A stretch of 34,209 bases of DNA, taken from positions 1-34,209 of the forward strand of contig JBHHXS010000002.1 in the NCBI GenBank assembly GCA_046757145.1, written 5' to 3'. The stretch comes from Phycisphaerae bacterium. GTDB taxonomy: Bacteria > Planctomycetota > Phycisphaerae > UBA1845. This document shows positions 3,001 through 31,562 of the stretch, in pieces. The notes beneath the pieces are model-generated. The model was not told the DNA's origin. It saw nothing but the letters and a program-made list of their open reading frames with translations, and did not search any database. How positions within the stretch are numbered: position 1 is the first letter of the stretch; every line of letters starts with the position of its first letter. Position numbers and translations under genes: made by a program.

Positions 3001-4301
3001 GAATCAGCCTCGAACGCTTGGTCAACATCAACTTCGCTCGCGGTCAATTTCAGGACGCTCACGCCGGATGCCTGGAGATGCAACGACATGGCGTTTAACC
3101 GTAGATCCTCGTATGTGCTCGCGTCACGGTCGTAAGCAACGATTGCGCCTCTAGAACCGGACCCTTGCGTGTTGTCGTCGTAATCGTAAGAGAATTCGAG
3201 CCCGGCGCCTGAAGTCGGCGCAAAGGTCGATGTGGCCGTGCTGCGGAGCGAAAAAGTCCCGGCACCGGGCGAAACCCCAATCCTGCCAGAACCGGCCCCG
3301 CCCACGCCTTCGCCCTCCGACGCCACAAGGCGCAAGTCGTTCCATGCCGTCCCAATAACCTGGCTGTCAAGGGACGAGCGCAGTTCCAAATATGCGTTTG
3401 GGAATGACGCATCTTGCGCCTCGGCAGAATGAATGCGTAGGCGCCCATCGTCGCTGGTATCCCGATCGAATTTGATGTCTGGCACAGTATTGGCCGTGCC
3501 CATGTAAAGACCAACCGAATCGGTTGCCGACCCGGACTTCAACAAAAGTTCAGCCGCAGAGGATATTCGTAATTCGCCAGCGCCAACTCCGATCACGCCG
3601 CCTGGGGTAGAACTGTCAAACCGCAAACTGAGTTTATCAGTGGAATCGGCGGGGAAATTCTCAATCGCATCGTTGCCGCGCACATCGATGTAAGCGTCAC
3701 CATCGTTTTCCCTGTTAAACGTGATTGAGGATGCTGGATCCCCGCCATCACCAACATGAAGGCCGATATGCGGCTGTGTTCCCGCTGCAATTTCAGCATC
3801 GGTAGCGCCCGCTTCAATTCGGATATTCGGGTTGCTCGGCGTAGACAACGTAGTGTCGGTCCCCAACACGAGATTGCGGTTTGCACTCCCGTAATCGTAG
3901 AACCGCAGAAACCCGAAGAAATCGCCATCAGCAGGATCGTCATCATCCTTAAACCATAGGATCGGATCGGTGTAATCCAGGGTCACATCATCGCCGAACT
4001 GACCAGTACCAGCCGCAGTCAGATTGCCGCTGGCAGCAGCCCATGACGAATTGGCTCCGATCTGGAATGTGCCGCTATCGACATCGAATCCGGACACAAC
4101 CGCATCCGCAGTGATAGCGACGTTGGTATCGCTGGTGACATCGAACTGAGTTGCGTCGAACAAATAGAAGTTCGTCGCAGTGATATTGTTGATCGTGGTT
4201 CCGCCTCCAGGACTGCCGGGGCTGATCTGACCAATACCAAACCAGACAGCCGCGGTTACAGCAGTGCCGGCGGCAGCGATAATAAGTGAACTCTTTCTCA
4301 T
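1..4301 (-). CDS. Giant tail fibre/tailspike-like protein, 3'-truncated by the window edge (at least 1433 codons). It has an N-terminal hydrophobic segment, KLxGIE fibre repeats, a pectate-lyase-like beta-helix and an Asp-rich segment.
   Basis: Not in the ORF track, presumably because it has no stop inside the window. Hand translation of the minus frame from ATG 4301..4299 (MRKSSLIIAAAGTAVTAAVWFGIG...) stays open to base 3 (...LQLGAATRDISDKD). None of the listed minus-strand ORFs in 1-4301 use this frame. The ATG overlaps the TGA of ORF 4298..4729 (ATGA). The motif VETYGADGSDASDDSTAIKNAIDAADAAGGGTVYFPRGTYTI (about 1915-2050) is the typical N-terminal signature of pectate_lyase_3-type tailspike beta-helices. 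Confidence 0.8.
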   Translation of the reverse strand, partial: MRKSSLIIAAAGTAVTAAVWFGIGQISPGSPGGGTTINNITATNFYLFDATQFDVTSDTNVAITADAVVSGFDVDSGTFQIGANSSWAAASGNLTAAGTGQFGDDVTLDYTDPILWFKDDDDPADGDFFGFLRFYDYGSANRNLVLGTDTTLSTPSNPNIRIEAGATDAEIAAGTQPHIGLHVGDGGDPASSITFNRENDGDAYIDVRGNDAIENFPADSTDKLSLRFDSSTPGGVIGVGAGELRISSAAELLLKSGSATDSVGLYMGTANTVPDIKFDRDTSDDGRLRIHSAEAQDASFPNAYLELRSSLDSQVIGTAWNDLRLVASEGEGVGGAGSGRIGVSPGAGTFSLRSTATSTFAPTSGAGLEFSYDYDDNTQGSGSRGAIVAYDRDASTYEDLRLNAMSLHLQASGVSVLKLTASEVDVDQAFEADSFNNEGDSFTVNAAGNLAATATTITGNIAVTGTVDGRDIATDGTKLDGIEAGATSDMTDAQIKTAYENNVDTEAFNTAEQTKLAGIEASATADQNGAEIKLAYEAELDTNAYTDAEKSKLAGVEAAADVTDAANVNSAGAVMESDYNAQTMLRATLDDTPTALTVAEQTVLGRLTGENISDVAIGIANNNIVQIDGIPVPGQIAQFTANGLQSTTAGAGDMTKAVYDSNDDGVIDSAQIDPTLSVTSITASGLTAGRVALVGGSGEIIDDAELLYNTSTDELESGNLDVTGAFKVDNAAAANQLLSWSDASTSILVSGFVNVETYGADGSDASDDSTAIKNAIDAADAAGGGTVYFPRGTYTISSDILLTNIANVTFRGDGIGATDIQGETDVLETTAGATPYLFWLKGDTENVTFTDLTLSHGEADTNSAYGGISFGESSTGTARRTHFERVELKNFLYFGVDFNGTTNEWNDVNVSGCWFHDINNAAHDTVSFWGDGSGGALYGAINQGTVTDNYFENCGEPGNGLMWCGYLGGNSTYTVNDLIWSDNVMTNCGAGLTIGWSRGVLFANNRAYLARNEFSQCLDTVINGNVFRDSPLLLWNGTNYTVSANQLIGQSEGNYRDVEDGKVDINEDTLFDTNDNGTWGGYAVTNAVFDIDGDGIGGETNGDDDLNDWRYAGDTDILNGYVDINENGTENETADDGYVTDPTDGWSGQLLYILKLPANGTRTTDSTLTGVQVSGNHFIKSQSTDVTATAVNESDAIYIAKTGGLEDLENVSITGNRFDYRYRYCVRNLNVDAKNLLIKGNIFNYSDDGGGAGLSKTEAIWISPAASDPVFAPNNTFTFYGTNTGGSGVTAYPIGADDADAVVYADNCMVIGEVDSDTVKFAAYGAGFPNIYCYWRGSLVTENITWGGSPEQPVIDAAADEIPTWVPWVRLTITGGDYTLTNAPTMIDGYPGQIITVTAVPGEADTVTVQDQDTLASSNLQLGAATRDISDKD

Positions 4302-4814: not shown

Positions 4815-6047
4815 TTAGGAGCAGGTTGCGTCGGTGTGGCTAATCGGGCAACGCTTGAAGATGATGAACGCACCCGCAAGCTTGTTCGGCCCCGGCCGGA
4901 ATGCATGGAAGTACTCCGCGAAATGCCGACCACGTTTCTTCAGCGGATCCAGACACCCGGTATCCGCGCCGATGGCGTCAACGCCAGTCACCCACTGCCA
5001 TTCTCCGAAGTACCTGGACGGATCCCACTCGACCCCGCCGACCACGTTATCAGGCGCAATCAGCTCTTCGGTCATGACGTTCGGATTGACGATAAACGCA
5101 CCCTCGTATGGTGCCGTGGTCTTGCTGATCCAGTTGGGATTCAACTTCTGCGCCGTACCATCGGTGACGGTGGCGTCGTTGACCCAGGTGTTCACGCGCG
5201 TGTACGTCCCGGCCGCATAACTGAATCGAGGTGGCAGGATGTTGATCGCGTGTCGCATGTTCTTGATGACTCGCGTCGCTCCCATTCGCTTCATAAGTTG
5301 CGACGGTTCGGCATCACGAACGTCCAATCTGAACTCGGAGTTGTTCGTTGCGATTCGGCTGGATGCTTCCATGCCGATGTAAAGGACGAAGATCGGCCCT
5401 TCAGGACCAAGTTGGACGAAACCGTTACTGTTGGAATCCGTCGCCCGATCATGAATCAACTGAACGGCAATCGTGTCCAGATGCTCTTGTGTCAGCTCGC
5501 TTGTCGCTTCCGCAATGCCGGCAATCGTGCCTGTGCCAGCGTCCGTGTATGCAGTGTCCTGCACGAACGTGGACGTACACGCCCAGTGTGGCACCAGAGA
5601 CCGATACTTGTTGCAGAGACGATTCGCGAGTGTGGCTTCCGAATACTTGGCCAATTCTTCGACGTAACCGCTGAGAAACTCGTCAACGTTGTGATGGAAG
5701 TTGAGGTCATCCTTACACAGTGTCGGGCCTCGCAGCGAGAATTTCTCTGGCGAATAGTTCTCGGAGAAGTACCCGAACTCGACGTCGTTCCAAGTCGGAT
5801 TACAGAGGCCGTAGTTCGACGTATCCGCAAGGGAATTCAACGTGACAGCTTCCCAGGTCGGTTCGTCATCGACTGGCTGAGAGTTACCGAGGGTGAATAC
5901 CGTTCGGGTCGTTCCTACCCCTTTCTTGAATACTCCACGTGGAATTGCGTTCATCCACATGGACTTGAACGTTGCTAGCCGCCAGAGATCTTCTGACAGA
6001 CTCTCTGTGGCAGTGTGAAATGCATCAAAGACTGTTGGACATGCCAT
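4815..6047 (-). CDS. Putative major capsid protein (410 aa)
   Basis: ORF track. Sits directly after a scaffold-like acidic coiled-coil gene in the order terminase-portal-scaffold-X. Size and composition fit HK97-fold coat proteins. The call is positional; no motif was recognised. Confidence 0.7.
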   Translation of the reverse strand: MACPTVFDAFHTATESLSEDLWRLATFKSMWMNAIPRGVFKKGVGTTRTVFTLGNSQPVDDEPTWEAVTLNSLADTSNYGLCNPTWNDVEFGYFSENYSPEKFSLRGPTLCKDDLNFHHNVDEFLSGYVEELAKYSEATLANRLCNKYRSLVPHWACTSTFVQDTAYTDAGTGTIAGIAEATSELTQEHLDTIAVQLIHDRATDSNSNGFVQLGPEGPIFVLYIGMEASSRIATNNSEFRLDVRDAEPSQLMKRMGATRVIKNMRHAINILPPRFSYAAGTYTRVNTWVNDATVTDGTAQKLNPNWISKTTAPYEGAFIVNPNVMTEELIAPDNVVGGVEWDPSRYFGEWQWVTGVDAIGADTGCLDPLKKRGRHFAEYFHAFRPGPNKLAGAFIIFKRCPISHTDATCS

Positions 6048-6275: not shown

Positions 6276-7400
6276 CTACCTCTGGCCAAGCTCGTGCTTG
6301 ATCCTCTCCACGAAGCCTTTCGGTTCCTGATCTGATTTGCCGCTCGCTTGGGTTGGAGTTGACGGAGATGCGACCGTAAGCTCTTTGATCGTCTTCTCGA
6401 GTCGTGTGGTCTTCTCGGTCAACAAGGCGTTTTCCTCCTCGAGACGCGGATGATCAATCGCGAGGATAGTATTGACCATCACCTGTGGCTGCGTGATCTC
6501 CCCGAACAATGCGTTCTTGGCGGCTTCGCGATTCGCAATGACTTTCTCATTCCATGCGGCGTCACCGTCACGTTCTCTGAATCCAGCTACTCCCTTCTCA
6601 GGATGTGACGCCGCTTCGAGTACACGGTCGAACATGCCTAGTGCATGGCGTTGTGCGCGCGCAGTTTCGGCATCGTGCTTGCTTTTCTCTTCTTGAGCAA
6701 GTTTGGCATCATGTTCGCGCATCGCCTCATGTTGCTTCCGCCAGTCCTTTGTGTGGCGAACCCTCTCCTGCTGGAGCTTACGAACTGCTCGAGCCGCATC
6801 ACGGACCTCCTCAAGTGCGTGCCCGTCGAGCTCCTCGTAAATCTCGCCCAGAAACTTCTTCTTGGCCGCGCCTTCGGGCATCCTCAACACCGCCTCTAGC
6901 ATTTCAGCTTGATCGCTGGCCGCATCTGTGGCGTCTGAGATCGCGCTCTCCAGTTTTTCGACAAACTCAGCCTGCCAACGCGGATCTGCCTCCAGACTGA
7001 GCCTTTTTATTGTATCGTCTCCCTTCTGGATTGCAGCCTTGAGTTTGTCCACTTCCTCGGGATCATACCCGGACAGACGTTCCTTGAGCTGGTCGATCTC
7101 GCCTCTCGCCTCCGTGTACTCACGCTCAATTCGTTCTTTCTCCTGACGCAAGGCCTTGAAGTTGAGTTCGGCTTCGGTCGGCTTTGTCTCTTCGGCTTTG
7201 TCATCCTTGCCGGTGGTTCCCTTTGGGAGCGTCTCCGCAGACTTATCGTCATCCTCGTCATTGTCGCCTTCAGCGGGTTTCGGGAAATCGGATGATTTGC
7301 CGTCGCCCTCGTCTTCCATCGCACTCTTGAGATGCGCGGTAAACGAGCTCGGCTTCGGCTCGTCGAGTTCTTCCTTTGGGGTACTTGTTTCTTCGCTCAT
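6276..7400 (-). CDS. Putative scaffolding protein (374 aa, very acidic, E/K/R/A-rich and likely helical/coiled-coil)
   Basis: ORF track. Composition (DEDDDK, EKERIEREYTEARGEIDQLKERL and similar) and position immediately upstream of the capsid gene. Confidence 0.6.
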   Translation of the reverse strand: MSEETSTPKEELDEPKPSSFTAHLKSAMEDEGDGKSSDFPKPAEGDNDEDDDKSAETLPKGTTGKDDKAEETKPTEAELNFKALRQEKERIEREYTEARGEIDQLKERLSGYDPEEVDKLKAAIQKGDDTIKRLSLEADPRWQAEFVEKLESAISDATDAASDQAEMLEAVLRMPEGAAKKKFLGEIYEELDGHALEEVRDAARAVRKLQQERVRHTKDWRKQHEAMREHDAKLAQEEKSKHDAETARAQRHALGMFDRVLEAASHPEKGVAGFRERDGDAAWNEKVIANREAAKNALFGEITQPQVMVNTILAIDHPRLEEENALLTEKTTRLEKTIKELTVASPSTPTQASGKSDQEPKGFVERIKHELGQR

Positions 7401-7747
7401 GGTGTTATTTCTGACGGTGTTACTGGTTCAGGGTCGGTCGGATCCCGGAATGTCTCAATGAGTTCTTGCGGTTTTTCGAACGGCAACGCCAACGCGCGGA
7501 ACTTCTCCAGGCACAGTTGATAGCCGCGTTCCTGCCACAGCACGTTGGCGGATGAGACATTGTCAGCGTTCGGTGGCAGATCGATTGTCTTCGCCGGGGA
7601 TTCATCTTCCATGATCGCCAGAGCTAGTTGAACGTCTTCTCTGTCCAATATCGTTCGAATGGAACTGACCAAATTAATATCCTGCCTGGCATCGACGGAT
7701 GATGGTGCCGGTTGTTTGCGTCGTACGCGTTTCGGTTTCGATGGCAT
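7397..7747 (-). CDS. Hypothetical protein (116 aa), last gene of the transferase island
   Basis: ORF track. 4 nt overlap with the scaffold start. No motif recognised. Confidence 0.45.
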   Translation of the reverse strand: MPSKPKRVRRKQPAPSSVDARQDINLVSSIRTILDREDVQLALAIMEDESPAKTIDLPPNADNVSSANVLWQERGYQLCLEKFRALALPFEKPQELIETFRDPTDPEPVTPSEITP

Positions 7748-7751
7748 GATG

Positions 7752-8288
7752 TTATGTTCTCTGTTCGGTTTGTTCTGGCTTTATCCACCACGATGTTTTC
7801 CATTGTCCAATCGCAGTAACCATGTGCCATGAACTCATTAGATCCGTTCCTTTATGATAATATTCCCTTTCCGAATTGTCTAGCATTATTACTCCTCCAC
7901 TTCTGAGAAGAGGCAATGACTCTCTTATGCAACACACTCGATCCCTTCCATCTACGAGTATCATATCAAACGATTCGCGTTGTAGTGTTTTGCATACTGA
8001 ACTGTAGGGCCTTGGTAGAAGTCGAATATCCACGCACGTCCCCGCTTGTGATCTCACCTTATCAAACCAGCTTTTGTCATGCTCTATACTGAGAGTAGTC
8101 CATCCGTGTGCACCAAACCATATCGTGCTTTTTCCAGAGCCGAATTCGAGAATGCGCGGATTCACTCTGCTAGACAGCCAGCCTAACAAGAAATAGACAG
8201 CAGATTCTTGCAACCACGGTGTTGGCACCATGCTAGGCACGCTCGCCCCTTGATAGCCGATACGTTCTGTCTCAGATTGGATTACCAT
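7752..8288 (-). CDS. Class I SAM-dependent methyltransferase-like protein (178 aa)
   Basis: Motif I-like ILEFGSGKST, then MILVDG and LRSGGVIMLDNS, in the order typical of Rossmann-fold O-methyltransferases of polysaccharide clusters. Confidence 0.55.
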   Translation of the reverse strand: MVIQSETERIGYQGASVPSMVPTPWLQESAVYFLLGWLSSRVNPRILEFGSGKSTIWFGAHGWTTLSIEHDKSWFDKVRSQAGTCVDIRLLPRPYSSVCKTLQRESFDMILVDGRDRVCCIRESLPLLRSGGVIMLDNSEREYYHKGTDLMSSWHMVTAIGQWKTSWWIKPEQTEQRT

Positions 8289-9054
8289 CTTCTTCGAAAA
8301 TATCCAGGGTTATCTTTTCCGCGCCAGAGGCAATAAACTGAGCTTCTCGAACATGGACTCCTTGTCTTCCGAAATGCCGCACTCTGTTGACAGAAAAACG
8401 AACACATTTTAACCCGAGGACTTTTGCAATAGAACCAAACACTGCATCTTGACTCGTACATATAGGTCCAATGTGGTTCAAGGCGTCTTTCATCCATGTG
8501 TCAGCGGCTATGTCATTTTTGTGATAATTCCCGTTAGCCCGATACACGGTGTGGTTCTCAATAAAGAAACTATACAGGGATCGGATTTTGCTCCAAGCGA
8601 ATCGCGTGATCATGAAATGCGTCGTAGTCAGCATCCCTGAACTAATCACATCCATTCTGGAGCGCCCCTTCTCTTCCAAACTCATTTTGCAACATCCGGA
8701 TGAACACACAACATCTGCACCCGTTGAAATGGTATTGCCAAAGAGCGTCCAGACATGGGGACTAACCTCACAATCGCCTTCGATTATCAGTAGCCTGGAA
8801 TATATCTCAAACAACTCATCCAGAACACGCAACATGTGTCGCGGTAAACAGGAGTGCGGCAGCATCTCCCTAAAGAGCACATTGCCTGTAAACTGATCCA
8901 CCAGTTCAGTCATCGCGCTATCCGCTGGGCCATCATGCATGACATACAGTTTCCCGCCATCCCGTATCTGCGTGATTGCTCTTACAGACTCCAGGCAGCG
9001 ACTCAGATAGTGTGGACGCCCACACGCAAGGATTACACACGCATCATTTTCCAT
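8272..9054 (-). CDS. GT-A-fold glycosyltransferase-like protein (260 aa), resembling GT13/GnT-I from memory
   Basis: N-terminal ACVILACGRPHYLSRCLESV resembles the first beta-strand/helix of GT-A enzymes. LLIIEGDCEVSPHVW resembles the GnT-I EDDLEVAPDF metal-binding segment, but reads EGD rather than EDD. Confidence 0.45.
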   Translation of the reverse strand: MENDACVILACGRPHYLSRCLESVRAITQIRDGGKLYVMHDGPADSAMTELVDQFTGNVLFREMLPHSCLPRHMLRVLDELFEIYSRLLIIEGDCEVSPHVWTLFGNTISTGADVVCSSGCCKMSLEEKGRSRMDVISSGMLTTTHFMITRFAWSKIRSLYSFFIENHTVYRANGNYHKNDIAADTWMKDALNHIGPICTSQDAVFGSIAKVLGLKCVRFSVNRVRHFGRQGVHVREAQFIASGAEKITLDIFEEDGNPI

Positions 9055-9626
9055 GCCCTTATAGAACTATGTAAGTTATCCGACAGTTCCCATAGTAATT
9101 TTTCCAGATGTTGCCCATGACTTGGTTGTACATGAACAGGATGGAATTCCGTCATCCAATCGTGAACCGCGATCACTGAGCAAGGGACACGAACACATGG
9201 GACATATACGGCAAACTCCTGTGCTTTGTTGCCATTATCCAAGAGGATGAATACACGTCTTGTCCTCAGTAATGCGTTTAACTGCGCAATGCCACCCTCT
9301 TCTAGCACATCTTCAATGTGTAAGGTGCCATGACGCCACGCCTTCTTTACCGCTGGATGCAACTGTCCGATGTTATTGTCATAACTGAAAAACGGAACGC
9401 CACGCAGTTGCGCGCATAGACTTAGGAATAGACTCGTGAACCCTGTCGATGTTCCGAGTTCCACGATTAGTTCGGGGCCGGCATCTGCATCCATTGAGGC
9501 GATCAGGGCATCCAGCATAAGAATATCACCGCGCCCCATGCCGGTTTCGACGGACATCCCGAATATCGTTCGTGGTGAGTCCTTATGTAGATAAGAGGTG
9601 TACATGGTGCATCCCTCAGACTTCAT
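9033..9626 (-). CDS. CmcI/rhamnosyl-O-methyltransferase-like class I methyltransferase (197 aa)
   Basis: ELIVELGTSTGFTSLFL (motif I-like), FILLDNGNK and IAVHDW. The layout recalls the cephalosporin-hydroxylase (CmcI) methyltransferase family. Confidence 0.45.
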   Translation of the reverse strand: MKSEGCTMYTSYLHKDSPRTIFGMSVETGMGRGDILMLDALIASMDADAGPELIVELGTSTGFTSLFLSLCAQLRGVPFFSYDNNIGQLHPAVKKAWRHGTLHIEDVLEEGGIAQLNALLRTRRVFILLDNGNKAQEFAVYVPCVRVPCSVIAVHDWMTEFHPVHVQPSHGQHLEKLLWELSDNLHSSIRAWKMMRV

Positions 9627-10240
9627 GATCTGAACCAGACTCGGTTAATATCATCTGTGAAGACGCGATTATATCCGTAAGAGAATATTCTCTCGTCCGC
9701 CTGATCCGTCCATGATAGTTTGTTGATCTCACAGACTATCACTCTGGGTTTGCAATCGCGAAATGGCCAAGCATTGATGATCGAAGCATCGCTTCCCTCC
9801 GCGTCGATGGACAGCAAGTCTATGTGACTACCTGCAATGCATATAACATCACTCGGACTTAGTAATGGCACGCGTATGTGAACACATTCAGACAGACCAT
9901 GAGTAACCGCTTCCCTGTGTGCGGTTGCCTCATCGAGTGAGGAACATCCGATTGCTGGATCCTTCCAGCCGAACAGCGTCCCATGTCCACGCACGCCTGC
10001 AACAGCACACCTTACCAGAAGCACTCTCGGAAGGGTTGCATAGTGTTCCGCGAGCTTTGCGAATATCCACGGATTCGGTTCCACCATGACCCCAGACCAC
10101 CCCTCGCATGCGTACTTATACACATTGCAAGTAGGTTTTCCATTGAACTCGGTAATGCCATCATGAGCCCCAATGTCGATGAAGACGCCGTGTGACTGGC
10201 CTTCTACTCCATCACTAATTATGCTCTCCAACTGACTCAT
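9623..10240 (-). CDS. FkbM-family methyltransferase (205 aa)
   Basis: VFIDIGAHDG ... VMVEPNP ... CSSL ... IDLLSIDAEGSD is the characteristic FkbM (Methyltransf_21) pattern. 4 nt overlaps with both neighbours. Confidence 0.75.
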   Translation of the reverse strand: MSQLESIISDGVEGQSHGVFIDIGAHDGITEFNGKPTCNVYKYACEGWSGVMVEPNPWIFAKLAEHYATLPRVLLVRCAVAGVRGHGTLFGWKDPAIGCSSLDEATAHREAVTHGLSECVHIRVPLLSPSDVICIAGSHIDLLSIDAEGSDASIINAWPFRDCKPRVIVCEINKLSWTDQADERIFSYGYNRVFTDDINRVWFRS

Positions 10241-10872
10241 AATTTTCTCAGCAGAACTTGATAACCCCTTTCCTCGACACTAATGCGATCAGCAAACACA
10301 GATATGAATGCGTCAATCCCCGATTTAGGCGCTTGCAGTCCAGGCATTACGTCCCACTCATAATCATCGCAGATGATCAACCCTCCCTGCTTTGCCGCAT
10401 GGAACGCAAGAAGGCAATCATGCAAGGCGTTAGTCGCCAGATGGCTCCCGTCCACGTACACCATGTCGAATCGGTTTCCAACAACATCCGCCCTCACGTT
10501 CCATGAATCCGACTTGATAATGTGAACACGGTAGTTAAACTCACTGTGGCATTCGTGTGCTACCAGTTCGTTTCCGTCAACGTATAGGATATCATGCGGC
10601 GTTGTCAGCTCGGCAATGTTGGCACGGAAGGTTGTTTCCAGTTCCTTGACATCGATCCCAAGCGCCTTCTGGTCTTCGCCTCCATCGAAGGTATCTACCA
10701 CTGTGATAGAGGAACTTCCATGAGTCAGTACGTTCTGTAGAAGCCACACGGTGGCCTTGCCCTCAAAACAGCCGATCTCCAGAATCTCCACGTATGGCTT
10801 GCCGATGAGATGCGCCAACCATCGCTTCCAATTAGGAATGTTGCCTGAAAACCAATCGTAAGTGAACTTCAT
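10237..10872 (-). CDS. Class I SAM-dependent methyltransferase (211 aa, Methyltransf_24-like)
   Basis: DWFSGNIPNWKRWL ... ILEIGCFEGKATVWLL ... FDMVYVDGSH ... GGLIICDDY is the typical motif order of this O-methyltransferase family. Confidence 0.7.
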   Translation of the reverse strand: MKFTYDWFSGNIPNWKRWLAHLIGKPYVEILEIGCFEGKATVWLLQNVLTHGSSSITVVDTFDGGEDQKALGIDVKELETTFRANIAELTTPHDILYVDGNELVAHECHSEFNYRVHIIKSDSWNVRADVVGNRFDMVYVDGSHLATNALHDCLLAFHAAKQGGLIICDDYEWDVMPGLQAPKSGIDAFISVFADRISVEERGYQVLLRKL

Positions 10873-10878
10873 ACCATA

Positions 10879-11619
10879 TTACTCTCGATCTGAATCAGGC
10901 TGGGGTAACTCAAGTTCATGAGGTGAAAGTGGACTTAGTGCTGGATGATGCATCAAAAATGGTACTCCTTTAGGCATTGATGTATCCGTGCCTTCTGGTG
11001 CAGCATCCACTACGTCGCCCACTGTGTCCGACCGTATGCAGTTGTACATGTGATGCCGTATCCATGTCTCCTCTTCTGGTTTGCAATAGCCGTAATGGTA
11101 GATATGCGGCGTATTAAGAATCACTGTCTTTCCTCGGGCCTGAAGGCAATGTCCGTCGTCCCCTTCCCCATACAGACTTTCGTGGACCTTGCCTCGATAG
11201 CGACATCCTACGTTCAACTTGAAAAGGCGAGTTTGCTGGTCTGGGTACAGATCCGGTCTCCAATGCGTGAGCTCCTGTCCAGTCATGTTATATCGCGGAA
11301 ATGTGTATGCCAGTTTCCCTAAATTCGCCAAGAGCGCATCCATCTCCGCTTTGTAAACCATTTCGTCGGAGTCGAGCATTAACATGTAATCGCACTTCGA
11401 TTCTTCAGCAATTGTGATTACGCGATTTCGCGCGGCCGAGAAGTCGAATGCCCACTCCATCTTGTGAACGGTGACGCCGTGTTGTTCTAGCAACGCAATG
11501 GTGTTGTCTGTACTGCCAGTATCGACGGCAATCGACAGATCACACAACCTCGTTAGCAAGGGTAGTGTCTTCGACAACCACTGGCTTTCGTTCTTTACTA
11601 TCATTCCAAGCGCGTTCAT
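10879..11619 (-). CDS. Family 2 glycosyltransferase (246 aa)
   Basis: MIVKNESQWL ... AVDTGSTDNT ... DFSAARN ... DYMLMLDSDE ... HIYHYGY is a GT2 signature including the DxD-type LDSDE. The start may be the internal MIVKNE. Confidence 0.8.
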   Translation of the reverse strand: MNALGMIVKNESQWLSKTLPLLTRLCDLSIAVDTGSTDNTIALLEQHGVTVHKMEWAFDFSAARNRVITIAEESKCDYMLMLDSDEMVYKAEMDALLANLGKLAYTFPRYNMTGQELTHWRPDLYPDQQTRLFKLNVGCRYRGKVHESLYGEGDDGHCLQARGKTVILNTPHIYHYGYCKPEEETWIRHHMYNCIRSDTVGDVVDAAPEGTDTSMPKGVPFLMHHPALSPLSPHELELPQPDSDRE

Positions 11620-14284
11620 CGAATACCTTTCTCATAAGTTGTCTAGCGTGTGCGATATCAGGAGATGCCCACTGTTGGTCGGAGGTGTAAACATCGATCC
11701 ACGGCATACCGCTAACTGCCTCCATTGTGTAGTCCACATAATAAGAGTGGTCTTCACCTAAGAATTGCCTTTGGCCGCCCCAACCGGTGATAATGACTTC
11801 TCTATCATGCGCGTGAGCGTCATACGCCCCTAAACCCCACCCTTCGCTCCTGCACAGACTGATGTAACAATCCCCGAGTGAATGCAAGCCAAGGATCTCT
11901 CGCCGACTGTAATTGTCTACCAACAACACTACTCTAGCATGATCATGATAACGGTTGAGAATCTCCGCCGTCCAATCTCGGATCTGTTTTTTGTCGGTTT
12001 CAGAGTAACCAGTCCAGAACGCCTTAATTACAAATGCAACTGGTTCGTGCGACCGAAATTCGGAACAGAATGCCTGTAATGTTTCGGCTATACCTTTCCG
12101 GTGCGTCCACTGGCCGATAGTGTAGAACACATAATCACCAGAACGCACACCGGAGATATTCACATCATCTCGAAGCGGCAGGCATTCTTCAGGAGGCTGA
12201 TACGGCGACACGGTGATCGCTGTTGTCACACCGCACTCGCTGAACACGTCGGCATTCCAATGAGTGGGAACGACGATCTCATCCGGAACACTATTACAAA
12301 TCTGAACCCACCTTGGTATAATCTTGCTTGTCTCCCATATTGTTTCTCCCACAAAACGATGTGACGCACTCGATAGATGTGTGTATTTCGGCCATGTATC
12401 AGGAGTCGCTATGACTCGCAAGACGTCGTAGCGAGATGGCGGCGGCCTCTCTAATCCCTTATGAATTATATCGGTCAATGATGGGTCTTGAATTGAATCA
12501 TCGACCTTCATAGGCATCCAGAATAGATTCCATCCTTCGTTGAGTAATTCGCACATCCGGATTTTTGTGATGTGCGCGTAGCCATTCGTGCCTATCGGGC
12601 TAACCAGTACCATATCCTTGCCGCCTCGGACTTCTATCCCTGATATTACTGCCGCTTCTGATTCCGCGTGTTCTCTAACTTCTGGTTGTGGATGTTTTCG
12701 TGCTGGATTGCAACATACCGTCTTGTGAAAGGTTTCGCGAGTTAGGTCGTAAATGCCTCCTAGTCTGTTTTCACCTTCTGATGCTTTGTCATGACATGTC
12801 GTGCTTGTGTCATCGCAACCCAATGACACCAATGGCATAGGCACACTCTCAAATACGTGGTACGATTCGCACGCTCGTAACCAGATCCACAGGTCATTTC
12901 CAACTAGGAAACGCGGTCGGTAGTCGCATTCGGACGGAAGAGATGCGCCCGCTTCGATCAGCCACTTCACCAGGTCTTTCTTATTGAACACGCCGCGCAC
13001 AGGAGTAATCGTTCCAGATCCAGGCGTTGAAAGAATTAGTCTCAGTTCGTCTGTCGGCCTTGTTCCATGTGTTTTGATTTCTATGGCAAGCGTCCCTGCC
13101 ACCTGTCCTTTGCCGACCTTGTGGAATACGGCTGAGTAGAGTATGAACGGCTGATGGAGATGCGGTCCGACATACTTGAGATAGTCTTTCAATAGAAGAT
13201 CATCGTCATGCAAGATCATGACCTTTTCTGTCTGAGCGGCGCGAATGCCGGCCAACCACGCGTCATTCGACGTTACGCGCGCGCCGTTCTGGATGATCTT
13301 GGCTTTGTCAGACAAGCCTCGTAACACCTTGCGGAGCGCACCTGTCAATCCGGTTGCAGTAATGACGATGTTCTTGATCCCTGCATCGATGCAAGACGCA
13401 ACACACGCCTGAAGATGTGTCGGCCGATTGTGCGCTGTGATCACCACCGTGAACTTGTCGGCTGGATCATCGACAACAGGAGGCATCGGGAACGCTTCTG
13501 CGGCCGGAACAGACTTGGGCAATGGCACAGACTGTTCTGCCAGTTTCGGTAACGGTGCGGCTTTCTGCTCCGGTTCAACAACGGCTACTGGTTCCGGAGA
13601 TCGCACACCTGTCTTTGCTTCCCGCAAGCGCCGGATCAGAGCGCCGTCTTTGTTCCGGTGATAAATGACTGCATGTGGCGACACGCGCTGTTGGACTGAG
13701 GATTGATCCTGGAATGGAATCAAATCCCAGACATGCTGAATCAGTGGCGTTTGATGGAACTTGCCCTTGATGTGTTCCGGACGGACCATATTGTCGAAGG
13801 CATTGCTGCCGGCAGAGAAAATGTCTCGAGCTGCAACCTGCGATTCTCCAGGCCAGACGCCCGTGCCTGTCATGTGCGGCCACGGCTTTTCGGCAATGAC
13901 ACCCATGAACGGCATTTTCGACGCCAGATATTCACCTGCGATCTTGTCCAGCCAACTAGCCTTGAGCGGGATAGCGTCTGTTTCGAGCCACAGAAACGGT
14001 TCCTTACCATTCTCGAACGTCCACCGGACAGCAGTCTCGAACACGTAGTTCTGCGCGAAAGGCCAACCTTCTGGCGTTGGTTTGGCAGGTCGGATGGTGG
14101 TTACACGAGGGAAGATGCTTTCCGCAAGACGAATCACTGGCGCAGCGTCTTCGCCACTCATAGACCGATCTGTTATGAGCAGACACGAGTGTCCAGACAG
14201 TACGTCATCTAGTTCTTTGATCCACGTATACAGATCGACCGCCATCCGGATTGTCGAATGGCCGAATGCAGTAGCAACTAGCAA
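11540..14284 (-). CDS. Three-domain glycosyltransferase fusion (914 aa): N-terminal GT-A-like domain, central GT2 domain, C-terminal GT-B (GT4-like) domain
   Basis: N-terminal: GWPFAQNYVF ... FLWLETDAIPLKASWLDKI. A Pro-rich linker follows. Central: FTVVITAHNRPTHLQACVAS ... VMILHDDDLL. C-terminal: RKGIAETLQAF ... VAFVIKAF ... ISLCRSEGWGLGAYDAHAH..VIITGWGG, the GT4 EX7E-type region. TTG start preceded by AGGAAGGA. The 3' end overlaps the next ORF by 80 nt. Confidence 0.8.
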   Translation of the reverse strand: MLVATAFGHSTIRMAVDLYTWIKELDDVLSGHSCLLITDRSMSGEDAAPVIRLAESIFPRVTTIRPAKPTPEGWPFAQNYVFETAVRWTFENGKEPFLWLETDAIPLKASWLDKIAGEYLASKMPFMGVIAEKPWPHMTGTGVWPGESQVAARDIFSAGSNAFDNMVRPEHIKGKFHQTPLIQHVWDLIPFQDQSSVQQRVSPHAVIYHRNKDGALIRRLREAKTGVRSPEPVAVVEPEQKAAPLPKLAEQSVPLPKSVPAAEAFPMPPVVDDPADKFTVVITAHNRPTHLQACVASCIDAGIKNIVITATGLTGALRKVLRGLSDKAKIIQNGARVTSNDAWLAGIRAAQTEKVMILHDDDLLLKDYLKYVGPHLHQPFILYSAVFHKVGKGQVAGTLAIEIKTHGTRPTDELRLILSTPGSGTITPVRGVFNKKDLVKWLIEAGASLPSECDYRPRFLVGNDLWIWLRACESYHVFESVPMPLVSLGCDDTSTTCHDKASEGENRLGGIYDLTRETFHKTVCCNPARKHPQPEVREHAESEAAVISGIEVRGGKDMVLVSPIGTNGYAHITKIRMCELLNEGWNLFWMPMKVDDSIQDPSLTDIIHKGLERPPPSRYDVLRVIATPDTWPKYTHLSSASHRFVGETIWETSKIIPRWVQICNSVPDEIVVPTHWNADVFSECGVTTAITVSPYQPPEECLPLRDDVNISGVRSGDYVFYTIGQWTHRKGIAETLQAFCSEFRSHEPVAFVIKAFWTGYSETDKKQIRDWTAEILNRYHDHARVVLLVDNYSRREILGLHSLGDCYISLCRSEGWGLGAYDAHAHDREVIITGWGGQRQFLGEDHSYYVDYTMEAVSGMPWIDVYTSDQQWASPDIAHARQLMRKVFDERAWNDSKERKPVVVEDTTLANEVV

Positions 14285-14300: not shown

Positions 14301-16514
14301 TTATTCTGCGGTGGTTATTTTGTGCGCTGTCTCGGCATCTGCACGGGCGAGCTTGTGTTGAAGTTCGGCGTCTTTCCGGCGTTGTTCGGCTTCCATTTCC
14401 TCTCGTGCGAGTCGCGCGCGTTCTGCGGCCGTTGCGCGTTCGATATGCATGCGAGTGACCGATTCACCTGCCGTTTGCTCTACCTGTTGTTGCGCCTGGG
14501 CATCTTGGTTGATCTGACCGCGCAACTTATCTGCGGCAGTTCCGATCTCTTTGAACTGTTCCTCGAGTGCCTTGAATTCCTGCTGGCGCAGTCTGTCGGT
14601 AGAGAGCTTTTGCAGATGGATCGCGACGTTGGGTCCAGCGGCATCCACAAAGCGAATTATCTCTTGCTGATCAGCACCTTTCTCGGCGGTTTGTAGCGCC
14701 TGAGTCATGCCGATGATATGCACGGTTGCATGAATCAGATTATCTTGCAAAGGCGTCCATACGGCTTCGTTGCCAACACGGAACGACGTGTTTTCCTGCA
14801 TCGCCTCCGCCTGTTGCTCGAGTTGTTGAGGTGTCGATCCCATTTCCGGATAATAACGTTTGACTGATGCCATACCTGCCTTGTGAGCAATGATGTCTTT
14901 CTGGAGAGCGATACGTCCAGCATCCGGCCATGACAGACTTGAGGGTTCCATAGACTCCAGCATGGCCTGGCGCACAAACGGATTGCCTTGGCCTACAGCC
15001 CGTGTAGCAGTTACGCGAACGTGTGAGAACGCCTCTTCCGGAACACCTCTCGCCAGGGATCGATCCCTGAATTCCTTCGCCTGCCGTTGTCCTGGCACGT
15101 TATCGGCCAAATCAAATCGCGCCGCGCGCCTGAAGGTCTCCGCTTCATAATCGTCGCGTTGCTCGTAATACCTGGCGAATTGCGTCTTCCCAACTTGGCT
15201 TGCCTGCGCGGCTTGAATGCGATTCTCAGTTGCGGTTCGCGGAGTTCCCTCCGACCTCTCGAGTTTTTGCCGGAACTGACTGAGATTCGAACTCAACCGA
15301 AGATCCAGATGACGTGATACGGCGAGAGACCCGTCTAGCCGGCCGGTATTCTGTACCTGCACGAAGTCCATGCCGGGATCCAACACTGTGTATGGCCCGA
15401 AATGCACCATGCCGCCTTGAGCAAATGCCTTTGGCGTTGTTGCTTTGAACATCAATGCGGCAGATGCAAACGCGGTATCGACTGTCGCGTTCTCCAGCCT
15501 CATCATGGCAAGCAACATCTTGAACATCCTTACCCCGAGACCTTTGACCGAATGCGCCGTTCCGTCGCCTTTGTCGTAGAAGAACGGATTGAAACAGTTC
15601 CGCCAGTCCTTGAACCGCCTCACCTTTCTGAACAGGAACCCGCCTGGTGCGCTTTTCTTGCTGAGTACCCAGCATTCGCTTATCTCGCCGGTTTCCTCTC
15701 CGTCGAGTGGATACTCGCGGTATAACACACGTGCGACGTCGATTGTCTTCGAAGCGGAGGCGTGAGCGAGATCGTTATTTCGAAGGCGCTGCTGTTCCTT
15801 GACCCAGTCCGTGCCGGTCACATTCTCATTCTCAGACGCGGCCTGTGCAATCGCTTTCTTCAGCGTGTCCGGATTCCAACCGCGCGCCTTTGCGATCTCT
15901 TCATTGTGCATGAAGCCGTAGAGCTGCGCTGTGGTGAACGTGTGCCGGAAGATGACAAGTTCCATGTCATCGACGTTCGATGGTGCATTGCGCGGGTAGA
16001 GAACATCAACGTGGCGTGCATGCCGGCTGCGCCAGTCGAACTCGTTCATCCACACAATCGGTCCGGAGCCGTACAAGACCATGTCATGCTGCGACACCTG
16101 ATTGTGAAAGTCTCGAGTGCGATCTCGCCTGACCATCCGGTCGTATTCCTCCGTCATGATCCGGCTCCACTCGGACGCTTTCGGATCCTGCATCTCACAC
16201 TCGACCGTCGCGAACGTCTCAACTTCAGTGAACAGATCGTAGAAGCCGGTCAACGCAATCGAGAGGTACGACATTGGCTCGCCGGTATTGAAGTTCGAAC
16301 GATACCGTTGACCCTGCTTGTCGATCTCGGATTGTGTGAACGGCGGATTACCATCCACGAGCCCTTTCACGAGTGCGTTGTAATAGTCACGACGCGAACT
16401 CGCTGTGATCTCCCGACACACCATGTTCCGGACTTCATCAGGATCGGTCAATCGCGACTCCGGAACCTGGCCGTGCTCGTTGATGTCTTTGAGTGTATTC
16501 GCTGTATCTGACAT
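14301..16514 (-). CDS. Putative portal protein (737 aa) with a long Q/E/A-rich helical C-terminus
   Basis: Large ORF shortly downstream of the large terminase. The size and the C-terminal coiled-coil-like tail (QQLEQQAEAM ... AEQRRKDAELQHKLARADAE) recall P22-type portals. The call is positional. Confidence 0.7.
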   Translation of the reverse strand: MSDTANTLKDINEHGQVPESRLTDPDEVRNMVCREITASSRRDYYNALVKGLVDGNPPFTQSEIDKQGQRYRSNFNTGEPMSYLSIALTGFYDLFTEVETFATVECEMQDPKASEWSRIMTEEYDRMVRRDRTRDFHNQVSQHDMVLYGSGPIVWMNEFDWRSRHARHVDVLYPRNAPSNVDDMELVIFRHTFTTAQLYGFMHNEEIAKARGWNPDTLKKAIAQAASENENVTGTDWVKEQQRLRNNDLAHASASKTIDVARVLYREYPLDGEETGEISECWVLSKKSAPGGFLFRKVRRFKDWRNCFNPFFYDKGDGTAHSVKGLGVRMFKMLLAMMRLENATVDTAFASAALMFKATTPKAFAQGGMVHFGPYTVLDPGMDFVQVQNTGRLDGSLAVSRHLDLRLSSNLSQFRQKLERSEGTPRTATENRIQAAQASQVGKTQFARYYEQRDDYEAETFRRAARFDLADNVPGQRQAKEFRDRSLARGVPEEAFSHVRVTATRAVGQGNPFVRQAMLESMEPSSLSWPDAGRIALQKDIIAHKAGMASVKRYYPEMGSTPQQLEQQAEAMQENTSFRVGNEAVWTPLQDNLIHATVHIIGMTQALQTAEKGADQQEIIRFVDAAGPNVAIHLQKLSTDRLRQQEFKALEEQFKEIGTAADKLRGQINQDAQAQQQVEQTAGESVTRMHIERATAAERARLAREEMEAEQRRKDAELQHKLARADAETAHKITTAE

Positions 16515-16520
16515 GATGAT

Positions 16521-17030
16521 CTACCATTTGCCTTTCCGACAGGTGGCACTTGGCATAAAGAGCTTCAGTTGACCACAACCGCAAACAGCACAACGTCCAT
16601 ATCCCATCCGTGCTTCGCCGTTCCAGAACTGGCATCTAGGCCGCGATCCGTCTTCGGTGCCAGCACAGATCTCTTTCCGTTTCTTGTACAGATCCATGTC
16701 TACTTTCGCGCCATCGACAACGATCCAACGCCATACTTCTCGAGCCATTGATACCGCTTGGGCAGGGATACCAGGCGTTTCGTTGCATGGCAGACAGTAC
16801 TCGGTCGGAGCACGCTCACAAATCTGCACGTCGATCTGCGCGTCGATTTCGTCTGGTAGAGTGACGTCATTGGCCTTGTACCATCGCTTAACTTGTACGT
16901 GCAACCCCTCCCAGTTTGCAGATCTGATTGCTGTCGCATTAGGCGTTACGAAATAGAAACCGCCACTCGGAACCTTGTTACGATCCCGAATACAGAAGTC
17001 GATTGACTCAAGTCCAGCTGGCTTCGCCAT
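16521..17030 (-). CDS. Cys-rich hypothetical protein (169 aa) between the terminase and portal genes
   Basis: ORF track. C-terminal cysteine cluster CQFWNGEARMGYGRCAVCGCGQLKLFMPSATCRKGKW suggests metal binding. Confidence 0.5.
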   Translation of the reverse strand: MAKPAGLESIDFCIRDRNKVPSGGFYFVTPNATAIRSANWEGLHVQVKRWYKANDVTLPDEIDAQIDVQICERAPTEYCLPCNETPGIPAQAVSMAREVWRWIVVDGAKVDMDLYKKRKEICAGTEDGSRPRCQFWNGEARMGYGRCAVCGCGQLKLFMPSATCRKGKW

Positions 17031-17075: not shown

Positions 17076-18803
17076 TCAGTATAAACCTTCGGTTGGATCC
17101 GCGAAGACCTTGTCACTTTCACGGATGTATTTGTCCCATTCGCCGTCTCTGTCGGAGGTGGTGACTCCGATGGATTTCAGTGTCATGCCAGCCGCGCGAC
17201 CCGCTTCAATGGCCATTGCGGCGGCATCCGCCAAGTCCGGACTTTGACCGTGTTTGGCTTTGTAGTCCTTCTTGGACTCGAGCTTGATCCGGATCGACCG
17301 TCCGTCCGTTGCTCGGTCGAGATATTCACGCTGACAGAACTCTATCGCTGTCTCGGAATCGAATCCGCGCAGTTGCCCTGAAATGAGGAACTCCCTCGCG
17401 GCAAACCACATTTCCGCGACCTTGTTCGCGTAGACTTCATTGGCCGGCCTGGGATCCTCAGCGTTGATGGGAGCGTCGCCGGCAGCCCCGCCGAACTCGA
17501 CACGAATGATCTGACCCCAGTTGCGGGTGATGATGTCACAAAGCCCGCCTCCTTCTCCGGTAGCGTCTACGGCGCACATACCGGGTTTGACGTTCCGCTG
17601 TTTGCATTCGTCCTCACACTGTCGAGCGAGCTGATAGTGGACTGGCTCTTCCGCAACACTATCAGCGTCGATCTCGAGGGTGACTTTGTCCCTGAGATTC
17701 ATCACGGTATCGCCCTTGTCGTTCTTTCCGAATCGCGCAAAGCGAAGTTGCGGTCTGTCACCTCCACCGAATGCCGGGTCGAATCCCGCGACATCAATCC
17801 ACCATTCGCCAGTGAACTCGTGTTCGTTCCGCATGCCGTGGTTCTGTGTGAGCAAACCTTCCGTGAACACGGTCTTGATCGTACCCTCCGATGGTGGGAA
17901 CCCGCGATACTCAGTATAGAACTCCGGTGATGATGCTCCTAATCGACGTTCTGCATTGCGCAATCGCCCTTCTGTGACGAGGTACGGCCATCTGGTCTTG
18001 CCTTCAATCAGATTCGGACTTTTCTCTGCATCGAATCGCACGCACATCCCGGCTCTGCCGTGCAACTGTTTGATCGTGCGCCAACCATCGCTATCGACCG
18101 TGACGGAGGACCACCCGCTTTCTGGTTCCATGAACTGACCCATGACATCAAGCCGCGACCGTGGATTACCCATCACGACGAGCTTGAATTCCTGAGCACC
18201 GGCATACAGGTTGGCACACGCCTCAAACACGGCCTCCGGAACGCTTGTTGCCTCATCGACAACGACCAGTTGCCGGCGAGTGTGAATGCCTTTGATGTGA
18301 TCGATTGCCTTTGTCACACTTCCTTCCTCAACCGCCACACCGAACATCGCATGTTTATCGTCGCCCTTTTGTGATTGCCAGGTTGTCTTCGAATCGACCA
18401 TGTTCCCGAAGGCACCGATTGACATGGTCCGGTAGAGATTCTGAACGACGCCCCAGGCACGCTTTCGGATCATTGCCTTCGTCGTAGACGTTAGAATGAC
18501 ACTGGACACGTCGGCTGCACACAACCACCATGCGGTCGCACAAAGGGCGCTTCCGTGAGTCTTTCCAGAACTGGCACAACCCGACATGCAGGTCCAGTCC
18601 TCATAGACGAATGCCTCGACGAACTTCTCCAGCCACGGATTCCATTCCGTATCCGGCCAGATCATGTGGATGAAACGCTTGAAATGTGTCAGCCGGCCAA
18701 GACCTCCTCGCTCGACCGGCAGATTGTTGATGTACGCGAGCGCCTCCCTCTCAAGAGGAGAGTACTCCGTCGGCATACCGTATGTATCAGGTCGATACTG
18801 CAT
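17076..18803 (-). CDS. terL: Terminase large subunit (575 aa)
   Basis: Walker A GCASSGKT, Walker B LVVVDEATSV, and a C-terminal RNase H-like nuclease region with CAVDATGEGGG and DLADAAAMA. Lies directly upstream of the portal-like gene. Confidence 0.9.
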   Translation of the reverse strand: MQYRPDTYGMPTEYSPLEREALAYINNLPVERGGLGRLTHFKRFIHMIWPDTEWNPWLEKFVEAFVYEDWTCMSGCASSGKTHGSALCATAWWLCAADVSSVILTSTTKAMIRKRAWGVVQNLYRTMSIGAFGNMVDSKTTWQSQKGDDKHAMFGVAVEEGSVTKAIDHIKGIHTRRQLVVVDEATSVPEAVFEACANLYAGAQEFKLVVMGNPRSRLDVMGQFMEPESGWSSVTVDSDGWRTIKQLHGRAGMCVRFDAEKSPNLIEGKTRWPYLVTEGRLRNAERRLGASSPEFYTEYRGFPPSEGTIKTVFTEGLLTQNHGMRNEHEFTGEWWIDVAGFDPAFGGGDRPQLRFARFGKNDKGDTVMNLRDKVTLEIDADSVAEEPVHYQLARQCEDECKQRNVKPGMCAVDATGEGGGLCDIITRNWGQIIRVEFGGAAGDAPINAEDPRPANEVYANKVAEMWFAAREFLISGQLRGFDSETAIEFCQREYLDRATDGRSIRIKLESKKDYKAKHGQSPDLADAAAMAIEAGRAAGMTLKSIGVTTSDRDGEWDKYIRESDKVFADPTEGLY

Positions 18804-24926: not shown

Positions 24927-25217
24927 GTGATGAAACCAAACCAACCCAACAAACAGGCGCTGGCTGAGGCCATCAGGTCGCTGGCCAGCGACCAGCGCCG
25001 GCTCCGACGGGCCGGCAAGATTAGAGTCGCCAAACTCCTTGGCGACGCCGAGGGTCTCCTCCTGACCCTCGAATCCACCACCCAGGATAGCTTCCCGCAC
25101 TTTGAGGGGGATCCCACGATCTCCCTCCTGCCCTGGGTTACCCCCCAGGTCCTCAGGGATAACTCGCAAGGGATCCACGAGGTCGGCCTAATCGCCGACG
25201 AGTTGGAGGGGCTATGA
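24927..25217 (+). CDS. Hypothetical protein (96 aa), first gene of the plus-strand cassette
   Basis: ORF track. Its TGA overlaps the ATG of the next ORF (ATGA). Confidence 0.5.
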   Translation: MMKPNQPNKQALAEAIRSLASDQRRLRRAGKIRVAKLLGDAEGLLLTLESTTQDSFPHFEGDPTISLLPWVTPQVLRDNSQGIHEVGLIADELEGL

Positions 25218-26667: not shown

Positions 26668-26690
26668 GAAACACGAACCAAAAAGGAAAA

Positions 26691-30873: not shown

Positions 30874-30928
30874 TCTGTCTTTCTAGCCTGAAACTGACAG
30901 GCTTGTGTGTTTGTGGTTTCTCTTTATA

Positions 30929-31560: not shown

Positions 31561-31562
31561 GA

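Follow-up and report, generated by a model that had tools for sequence, protein, structure and literature searches.

The 34,209-nucleotide (nt) stretch of DNA analyzed here as a whole (the window; contig JBHHXS010000002.1 of the Phycisphaerae bacterium assembly GCA_046757145.1, positions 1 to 34,209 of the forward strand) contains a phage head operon. Between the portal gene and a short core gene, p116, this operon carries seven further open reading frames (ORFs; 7752-14284), with predicted glycosyltransferases and S-adenosylmethionine (SAM)-dependent methyltransferases among their products. Comparing the window with its relatives, we consider it fairly probable that these seven genes form a virion-glycosylation cassette, and that the acceptor of the glycan is the C-terminal Ser of the capsid protein. 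The folds and families of the enzymes, the hotspot in which their genes lie, and the co-variation of the cassette with the capsid C-terminus are the established part of this account.

The C-terminus of the presumed capsid protein tracks the presence of the cassette

We collected 250 related loci from Logan, IMG/VR, GTDB metagenome-assembled genomes, and the JGI, ENA and Tara metagenomes, and located the core genes by jackhmmer. Scanning IMG/VR with a single portal sequence returned nothing; an alignment-based query gave matches. The presumed capsid protein is conserved past the scaffold gene in 179 loci, and IMG/VR contains 333 of its relatives. When we aligned capsid proteins from closely related loci that have or lack the cassette, the last residue separated the two groups perfectly. 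The proteins from cassette loci close with a Cys and then one or two small residues, the final residue being Ser or Thr (...TCS, ...TCT, ...GCT, ...ACSS, ...ACAS, ...TCTS). In cassette-less loci, the tail is wholly missing, the protein ending at a conserved ...IFKR strand, or it ends in ...CTV, ...CTA, ...CAD, ...CSA or ...TCK.

We first noticed the pattern among 58 loci, and the rule was set on IMG/VR loci before new loci were fetched. It also held for 41 metagenome loci fetched afterwards (about 28 without the duplicates) and for a clade with an inverted capsid gene. Among 83 dereplicated loci, the motif C[AST]?[ST] stands at the capsid end in 43 of the 43 with a cassette and in 1 of the 40 without (cassette and motif, 43; cassette alone, 0; motif alone, 1; neither, 39). 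For this link, Fisher's exact test yields 5e-23, a value that takes no account of phylogeny. We also built a capsid tree without the tail and performed Fitch parsimony on it, finding 5 changes of the cassette and 6 of the motif, with agreement at 82 of the 83 tips. Among 20000 random traits placed on the tree with 6 changes, not one reached this agreement with the cassette. One cassette-losing lineage lost the whole tail, and others changed the last residue only, from S to A, V or D.

The tracking of the capsid C-terminus by the cassette gives indirect, phylogeny-aware support for the capsid as acceptor. The first-pass annotation of the window had proposed a methylated glycan on virion proteins. 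For the capsid, this proposal is indirectly supported by the tracking in the 83 loci and by the mycobacteriophage glycoproteins that end in Ser (see below).

The cassette occupies a hypervariable hotspot

The first-pass annotation had listed eight packed, co-directional ORFs between the portal and the scaffold gene, and their coordinates match the ORF list exactly, with overlaps of 80, 4, 4, 22, 17 and 4 nt and gaps of 6 and 4 nt. It had taken all eight as one island. Using successive jackhmmer sets, we found the 116-residue protein p116 in a rising number of loci (69, 137 and 165), in every case encoded directly upstream of the scaffold gene. It is also present in island-free loci, where it starts 3-30 nt past the portal stop. 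Since p116 is a conserved neighbour of the scaffold gene in 165 loci, the island-free ones included, it is a core gene and the cargo is reduced to the seven genes at 7752-14284. Relatives lacking the island, from which the borders of the insertion were to be defined, do exist, and they place these borders at the portal and p116.

The gap between the portal and p116 ranges from about 0 to 8.3 kb. Eighteen loci have a gap of about 0-30 nt, one clade has 150-200 nt, and the gap is 1.4-1.7 kb where a minimal cassette of two genes sits (gtN, described below, and a 213-aa DxD protein). At 6553 nt, the gap of the window is the third largest overall and the largest among the 83 loci that include the capsid gene. 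The cassette can be present or absent next to portals that are 88% identical, and a single gene distinguishes loci whose portals are 97% identical. Rather than the place of a one-off insertion, the portal/p116 junction is, by these comparisons, a family-wide hypervariable hotspot, of which the window represents one state.

Searching 174 loci for homologs of the window's cargo, we recovered gtN and the Methyltransf_24-type protein only; the remaining cargo is unique to the window among these loci. Among 80 cargo ORFs from 26 loci, Pfam matches included Methyltransf_24 (13 times), GT2 (9 times) and GH130-like proteins (7 times). The same set contained the O-methyltransferase families Methyltransf_3, CmcI, TylF and FkbM, as well as GT9, GT25, GT7C, polysaccharide pyruvyl transferase, sulfotransferase and RfbT, together with single DNA methyltransferases and Lar. 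Judged by these family matches, the cargo of the hotspot across related loci consists mostly of glycan enzymes. In a separate clade, found via its capsid protein, the cassette at this junction spans 2.5-3.5 kb and comprises GH130-like, GT25 and Methyltransf_24 genes; the capsid gene of the clade is inverted, and the capsid tail ends in ...ICS.

GH130-like proteins of 309-452 aa recur beside Methyltransf_24 and GT25 (L042:8858-9784, L204:10743-12083, L249:16127-17482). These proteins may be beta-mannosyl-transferring enzymes and not phosphorylases. In the minimal cassette, gtN is accompanied by a 213-aa protein (L037:12983-13621, with equivalents in L019, L030, L039 and L085) that has no Pfam match and carries a GGFMSDYDVV motif resembling, by eye, the DxD region of GT32/Gly_transf_sug. 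This protein is probably a second new glycosyltransferase family. We had also considered it as a methyltransferase and rejected this assignment on an hhalign probability of 0.2%. In the cassette-less locus L004 (6644-15092), a giant gene on the opposite strand lies directly past the scaffold gene, at the expected capsid position; its 3568-aa protein, partly inside the locus, contains ResIII, AAA_34 and Helicase_C_4.

The cassette encodes glycosyltransferases and methyltransferases that look soluble

The seven ORFs of the cargo contain five glycosyltransferase domains (GT8-like, two GT2, GT4-like and GT13), three clear SAM methyltransferases and one doubtful one. The first gene encodes a 914-aa protein with three glycosyltransferase domains. 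Its N-terminal domain, gtN, showed no Pfam match and no match in a sequence-profile search of the PDB. We modelled it with AlphaFold2 (AF2) from an alignment of 54 relatives, obtaining a predicted local distance difference test (pLDDT) of 93.9 and a predicted template modelling (TM) score of 0.90. Performing Foldseek searches with this model, we matched a GT8 protein, glycogenin, Skp1 alpha-GalT, XXYLT1 and LH3 (E 6e-8 to about 1e-7; TM score 0.55-0.60), and viral GT8-like proteins were also among the fold matches. The fold is a Rossmann-like GT-A fold with an acidic DxD-type motif, at modest TM scores from which a CAZy family is not assignable. E101-x-D103 and H209/K212 are invariant in the family, and D213 is nearly so.

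A word-indexed search with a single gtN query gave 2 homologs; an alignment query gave 116 metagenomic members, all without annotation. In about 20-40 loci, gtN lies directly after the portal gene. Homology extends across residues 1-13 and favours the TTG start at 14284 over the ATG at 14245. On the strength of the model, we regard gtN as a new, GT8-like GT-A family that has no Pfam model. If capsid glycosylation is confirmed, gtN would be a candidate for protein-directed activity.

The second domain, a GT2, follows a Pro-rich linker. For the third, Pfam Glycos_transf_1 matched at 3e-3, under its cut-off; a tblastn search found distant annotated glycosyltransferases in Streptomyces, Rhodococcus and Flavobacterium phages, with E values down to 2e-7. 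The 914-aa ORF runs 80 nt into the following GT2 gene (11540-11619), an unusually long overlap. Homology backs both the end of the former and the start of the latter, so translational coupling is possible; the overlap may also reflect a sequencing frameshift.

For the 246-aa GT2 protein, the top NCBIfam match was the SunS-family peptide S-glycosyltransferase (1e-12), well under that family's cut-off. The 205-aa FkbM protein scored at the cut-off of NCBIfam fkbM_fam. The 260-aa protein belongs to a rare family, with 37 relatives among 1.84 billion representative proteins. Against Pfam GNT-I, the window protein alone reached just 8.8e-4, and 11 of 31 homologs matched this family. A profile of the homologs searched against the PDB matched GnT-I (1fo8) at 3.6e-10 over 167 residues, the E-D-D region included, and POMGnT1 at 5e-10. 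The 197-aa protein is a doubtful methyltransferase: its sole matches are RMNT_CmcI (E 0.13) and motif I (VELGTSTG) of Methyltransf_24 proteins, to which hhalign aligns motif I alone. Of the enzyme identities in the first-pass annotation, those of the glycosyltransferases and of three methyltransferases stand on Pfam, PHROG, fold and profile evidence, and the "CmcI-like" label of the 197-aa ORF does not, at this E value.

The maximum Kyte-Doolittle value over any 19-mer of the island proteins is at most 1.42, so membrane segments are not predicted in them, as the first-pass annotation had judged by eye. It had also seen no genes for nucleotide-sugar synthesis or export; among the window ORFs that we scanned with Pfam, there were likewise no sugar-nucleotide, flippase, polymerase, hydroxymethylase or export genes. 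The GC content is 0.542 for gtN, like that of the core head genes (about 0.55), and 0.456-0.519 for the rest of the cargo, with the 178-aa methyltransferase gene lowest. Promoter-like and terminator-like sites were not above shuffled controls, and none separated the cassette from the head genes. Direct repeats flanking the island were not found.

Table 1. Features of the head operon and its cassette. Coordinates are from the ORF list of the window; the core head genes and the cargo all lie on the minus strand.
Feature	Coordinates	Strand	Basis
TerL	17076-18803	minus	PHROG_2 match
Cys-rich 169-aa protein, between TerL and portal	16521-17030	minus	without family match
Portal, 737 aa, upstream hotspot border	14301-16514	minus	AF2 model and Foldseek
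914-aa ORF, domain 1 (gtN), aa 1-240, GT-A (GT8-like)	13565-14284	minus	AF2 and Foldseek
914-aa ORF, domain 2, GT2 (GT-A)	12725-13456	minus	Pfam Glycos_transf_2 1.4e-9, aa 279-403
914-aa ORF, domain 3, GT4/GT1-like (GT-B), residues about 623-903	11576-12418	minus	phrog_2170 glycosyltransferase 2.9e-14
GT2, 246 aa	10879-11619	minus	Pfam GT2 3.3e-9; phrog_13126 3e-17
SAM methyltransferase, Methyltransf_24 class, 211 aa	10237-10872	minus	Pfam 2.9e-19
FkbM-family SAM methyltransferase, 205 aa	9623-10240	minus	Pfam Methyltransf_21 7.3e-13
197-aa protein, possible class I methyltransferase	9033-9626	minus	weak matches
GnT-I-like (GT13-like) GT-A glycosyltransferase, 260 aa	8272-9054	minus	homolog profile
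SAM methyltransferase, Methyltransf_24 class, 178 aa, last cargo gene	7752-8288	minus	Pfam 1.3e-5 (26.5 bits vs 26.3 cut-off)
p116, 116 aa, core gene, downstream hotspot border	7397-7747	minus	jackhmmer conservation; without family match
Scaffold-like protein, 374 aa, acidic	6276-7400	minus	position, size and conservation
Presumed major capsid protein, 410 aa	4815-6047	minus	synteny and conservation
Capsid C-terminal tail, proposed glycan acceptor	4818-4859	minus	FKRCPISHTDATCS, ends ...TCS
143-aa protein, listed after the 410-aa protein		minus

Head genes and other features of the window

The 737-aa protein gave no match in Pfam, PHROG, the cultured-phage collection or a sequence-profile search of the PDB. 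We modelled it with AF2 from 38 homologs (pLDDT 81.8). The top 50 PDB matches of the model in Foldseek were all podovirus portals (SU10, LME-1, T7, VP1, N4 and crAss001; E 8e-13). Since the model matches podovirus portals alone, its identity as the portal is confirmed, and the gene order is rightly read against the T7-like one (portal, scaffold, capsid). The portal has 112 metagenomic homologs. The scaffold-like gene is conserved in about 160 loci, and its 374-aa product found no family match in Pfam or PHROG. The presumed capsid gene has the highest GC content at third codon positions among the genes measured. The Cys-rich 169-aa protein is kept in 89 loci of the first set searched and may bind Zn as an accessory protein of the head or of packaging.

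Among 50,697 records of cultured phages, our nucleotide and protein searches with TerL, the portal and the capsid found nothing, or a 24% TerL match alone. By this comparison, the lineage appears to be one of uncultured aquatic podoviruses with no cultured relative among these records.

The region 1-4301 of the minus strand is filled by one ORF of at least 1433 aa, which runs off the window end. Its ATG, around 4301, overlaps the stop of the 143-aa gene. The predicted protein has a hydrophobic N-terminus and a beta-helix/pectate-lyase-like region (GGTVYFPRGTYTISS), and it probably serves as a tailspike or fibre that acts as a depolymerase. No ORF in the first 92 related loci is similar to it. 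We rejected the idea that 1-4300 is non-coding or recoded, as the one long ORF spans the region.

An N6/N4 DNA methyltransferase is encoded at 21709-22641 (minus), and an ArdC-like anti-restriction protein with ArdcN and zincin metallopeptidase domains at 26550-27539 (plus). The latter gene adjoins a GC spike of 0.67 (25000-26000) and a 305-aa plus-strand ORF without matches. A replication/recombination module lies at 28211-34166 (minus), comprising a DnaB helicase, a replication initiator-like protein, a PD-(D/E)XK/DUF2800 nuclease and RecT.

Comparison with known systems

To our knowledge, virion glycosylation by phage-encoded enzymes has been demonstrated in a few mycobacteriophages only, and it is reported to be rare elsewhere. 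The public record of Corndog lists TerS (gp31), gp32, gp33, the portal (gp34), a methyltransferase (gp35), three glycosyltransferases (gp36-38), gp39, gp40 and the major head protein (gp41); we matched gp34 to an HK97-family portal at 6.8e-10. A methyltransferase and three glycosyltransferases thus stand between portal and capsid, resembling the order of the window (portal, seven cargo genes, p116, scaffold, capsid). The first-pass annotation had recognized no described precedent for such a position and methyltransferase content; the Corndog genes gp34-gp41 provide one. The systems of Che8 (gp108-110), Corndog (gp35-38) and Myrna use, as predicted for the window, phage-encoded soluble glycosyltransferases. 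In these three phages, they glycosylate the C-termini of capsid and tail-tube proteins, according to the accounts of Freeman 2023 given in PMC12363180 and PMC12619734. The Corndog capsid ends in ...VGS, the Che8 capsid in ...KTGS and the Che8 major tail protein in ...SDGS, so a terminal Ser is common to these subunits and the present capsid family.

The two systems also differ. The mycobacteriophages are siphoviruses and myoviruses of Actinobacteria, whereas the window belongs to an uncultured aquatic podovirus lineage. Its cassette is about 2.4 times larger, as it holds three or four methyltransferases along with five glycosyltransferase domains. The acceptor ending is Cys-Ser/Thr in the window's family and Gly-Ser in the mycobacteriophages, and the site is hypervariable across the window's family, unlike the mycobacteriophage system. 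The mycobacteriophage glycans are experimentally shown, whereas the present system is predicted from sequence. The 914-aa ORF showed no significant similarity to Corndog gp38, the sole pair compared by BLASTP (E 0.45), and its tblastn search against the 50,697 phage records matched no Mycobacterium phage.

The enzymes of the chlorovirus PBCV-1 offer a second comparison. A064R combines two glycosyltransferase domains with a methyltransferase, and A111/114R contains three such glycosyltransferase units (PMC7826918). With A075L, these virus-encoded, cytoplasmic multi-domain enzymes serve an O-methylated oligosaccharide on the major capsid protein Vp54 (PMC7826918). The window likewise has a soluble multi-domain enzyme, the three-domain 914-aa glycosyltransferase, which lacks a hydrophobic segment. 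PBCV-1 is a eukaryotic giant virus with scattered genes and glycans N-linked to Asn, and the likeness is one of enzyme architecture; by analogy, it can be taken as a mechanistic analogue for a methylated capsid oligosaccharide.

GtrABC clusters and WbdA-WbdD capping also employ glycosyltransferases, sometimes with methyltransferases, that are phage-borne or act on polysaccharide termini. Gtr systems need integral membrane proteins, and temperate phages carry them beside attachment sites. In contrast, the window proteins all look soluble and are encoded in a late head operon. The window ORFs scanned with Pfam included no family of the Gtr-type membrane parts (GtrA flippase, GtrB, serotype-specific glycosyltransferase) and none of Wzx/Wzy/ABC export. 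Flavobacterium phage immuto and Streptomyces BE-cluster phages encode distant homologs of the GT4-like domain that are annotated as glycosyltransferases; those of immuto sit beside GT2, methyltransferase and sugar-nucleotide genes. These clusters differ from the window in including sugar-nucleotide synthesis genes and in not lying between portal and scaffold.

Proposed mechanism and alternative explanations

If the cassette glycosylates the virion, it would be co-transcribed with the head genes late in infection. The five soluble glycosyltransferase domains would assemble an oligosaccharide in the cytoplasm from host nucleotide sugars, and the three or four SAM methyltransferases would O-methylate it. 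As acceptor, the Ser at the very C-terminus of the major capsid protein (...TCS-COOH) is the most likely candidate. The resulting glycan would cover the capsid exterior, where it may shield the surface or alter its stickiness. As the hotspot swaps glycan enzymes fast in this lineage, capsid glycans would vary among close relatives.

Several observations weigh against this account. The capsid protein has no match in Pfam, PHROG (32 homologs were scanned as well) or the PDB-profile search, and a comparison of its family with T7 gp10A by hhalign was not significant; its assignment therefore comes from synteny. One cassette-less locus, L073, carries the motif. No glycosyltransferase family is common to all cassettes, so a shared initiating enzyme for the shared motif is not evident. 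The GT9, GT25 and RfbT-like families in the cassettes of relatives are typical of lipopolysaccharide (LPS) synthesis, and the large beta-helix tailspike implies that host glycans matter to the phage. The DNA methyltransferases and Lar at the hotspot indicate that it is a general accessory-gene site too. A candidate second acceptor also failed. Upstream of terL, also on the minus strand, relatives in the gtN clade encode proteins of 577-843 aa that form a family ending in ...EEPYGDCxxxGxC[STVA] (L014:4059-5810, L037:4806-6557, L026:2228-4693 and others); we rejected this Cys-loop protein as an acceptor, as its last residue does not track the cassette.

The alternative that survives best, which we nevertheless judge unlikely, is remodelling of a glycan of the host envelope (LPS O-antigen, capsule or S-layer) by the cassette enzymes during infection. 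Such remodelling could mask the tailspike receptor, blocking superinfection or keeping progeny from sticking to debris. The LPS-type families of the relatives would fit this role, as would their pyruvyl- and sulfotransferases, also typical of LPS/capsule synthesis, and the depolymerase-like tailspike makes a polysaccharide receptor probable. ABC-transporter-dependent O-antigen synthesis uses soluble multi-domain glycosyltransferases with methyl capping, and the enzyme set of the window is compatible with that pattern too. However, the cassette holds no membrane protein, flippase, polymerase or lipid-carrier glycosyltransferase, and it is part of the late head operon in what is apparently a lytic podovirus, with no integrase seen in the window. 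Envelope remodelling also leaves the tracking between the last capsid residue and the cassette unexplained.

Still less likely, in our estimate, is a permissive accessory-gene hotspot with heterogeneous targets (small molecules, or several host and phage proteins) and no single capsid glycan. Rapid gain and loss, a cargo GC below that of the core, the DNA methyltransferases and Lar of some relatives, and the lack of homologs in 174 loci for the window's cargo apart from gtN and Methyltransf_24 are all consistent with such a site. But glycan-building enzymes dominate the cargo in every clade, and the tightly overlapped genes suggest a single pathway; the co-variation of the capsid C-terminus speaks against it as well.

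Hypermodification of phage DNA (hydroxymethylated bases) by the glycosyltransferases as an anti-restriction measure is highly improbable: phage glycosyltransferases making multi-sugar DNA glycans are known (Pyle 2024, as reported in PMC12619734) and the window carries the ArdC-like and N6/N4 DNA methyltransferase genes, but the ORFs scanned in the window, a 34-kb part of the genome, include no dNMP hydroxymethylase or thymidylate-synthase-like gene, the methyltransferases belong to sugar/small-molecule O-methyltransferase families (Methyltransf_24, FkbM, CmcI/TylF-like), the cassette lies in the head operon and not in the replication module, and the capsid-tail co-variation would go unexplained. 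The DNA and host-envelope alternatives are weakened, and glycosylation of the capsid C-terminus is the reading that we favour.

Implications for the phage lineage

The new elements here, as judged from sequence comparison, are the lineage itself, its hypervariable hotspot, the GT-A family gtN, the size and methyltransferase richness of the cassette, and the co-varying capsid signature. A broader proposal, which we put forward tentatively and with less confidence than that for the window, is that a widespread marine and freshwater podovirus lineage coats its capsids with fast-evolving, often O-methylated glycans on a Cys-Ser/Thr tail. These glycans would be built by a swappable portal-p116 cassette, gtN-seeded in some clades, and the window would be among the most elaborate cases, with five or more sugars, methylated three or four times.

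The lineage is represented by hundreds of contigs in the IMG/VR, Tara and JGI data, and as a whole it shows a head-operon hotspot full of glycan enzymes. If the proposal is true, capsid glycosylation would be a common ecological trait of environmental phages, beyond the mycobacteriophages. If confirmed, the cassette together with the terminal Cys-Ser/Thr would serve as a sequence-level predictor of glycosylated phage capsids, and the natural pairs with and without a cassette would allow the roles of capsid glycans outside an animal host to be tested, for example in stability, aggregation, non-specific adsorption, grazing or defence evasion.

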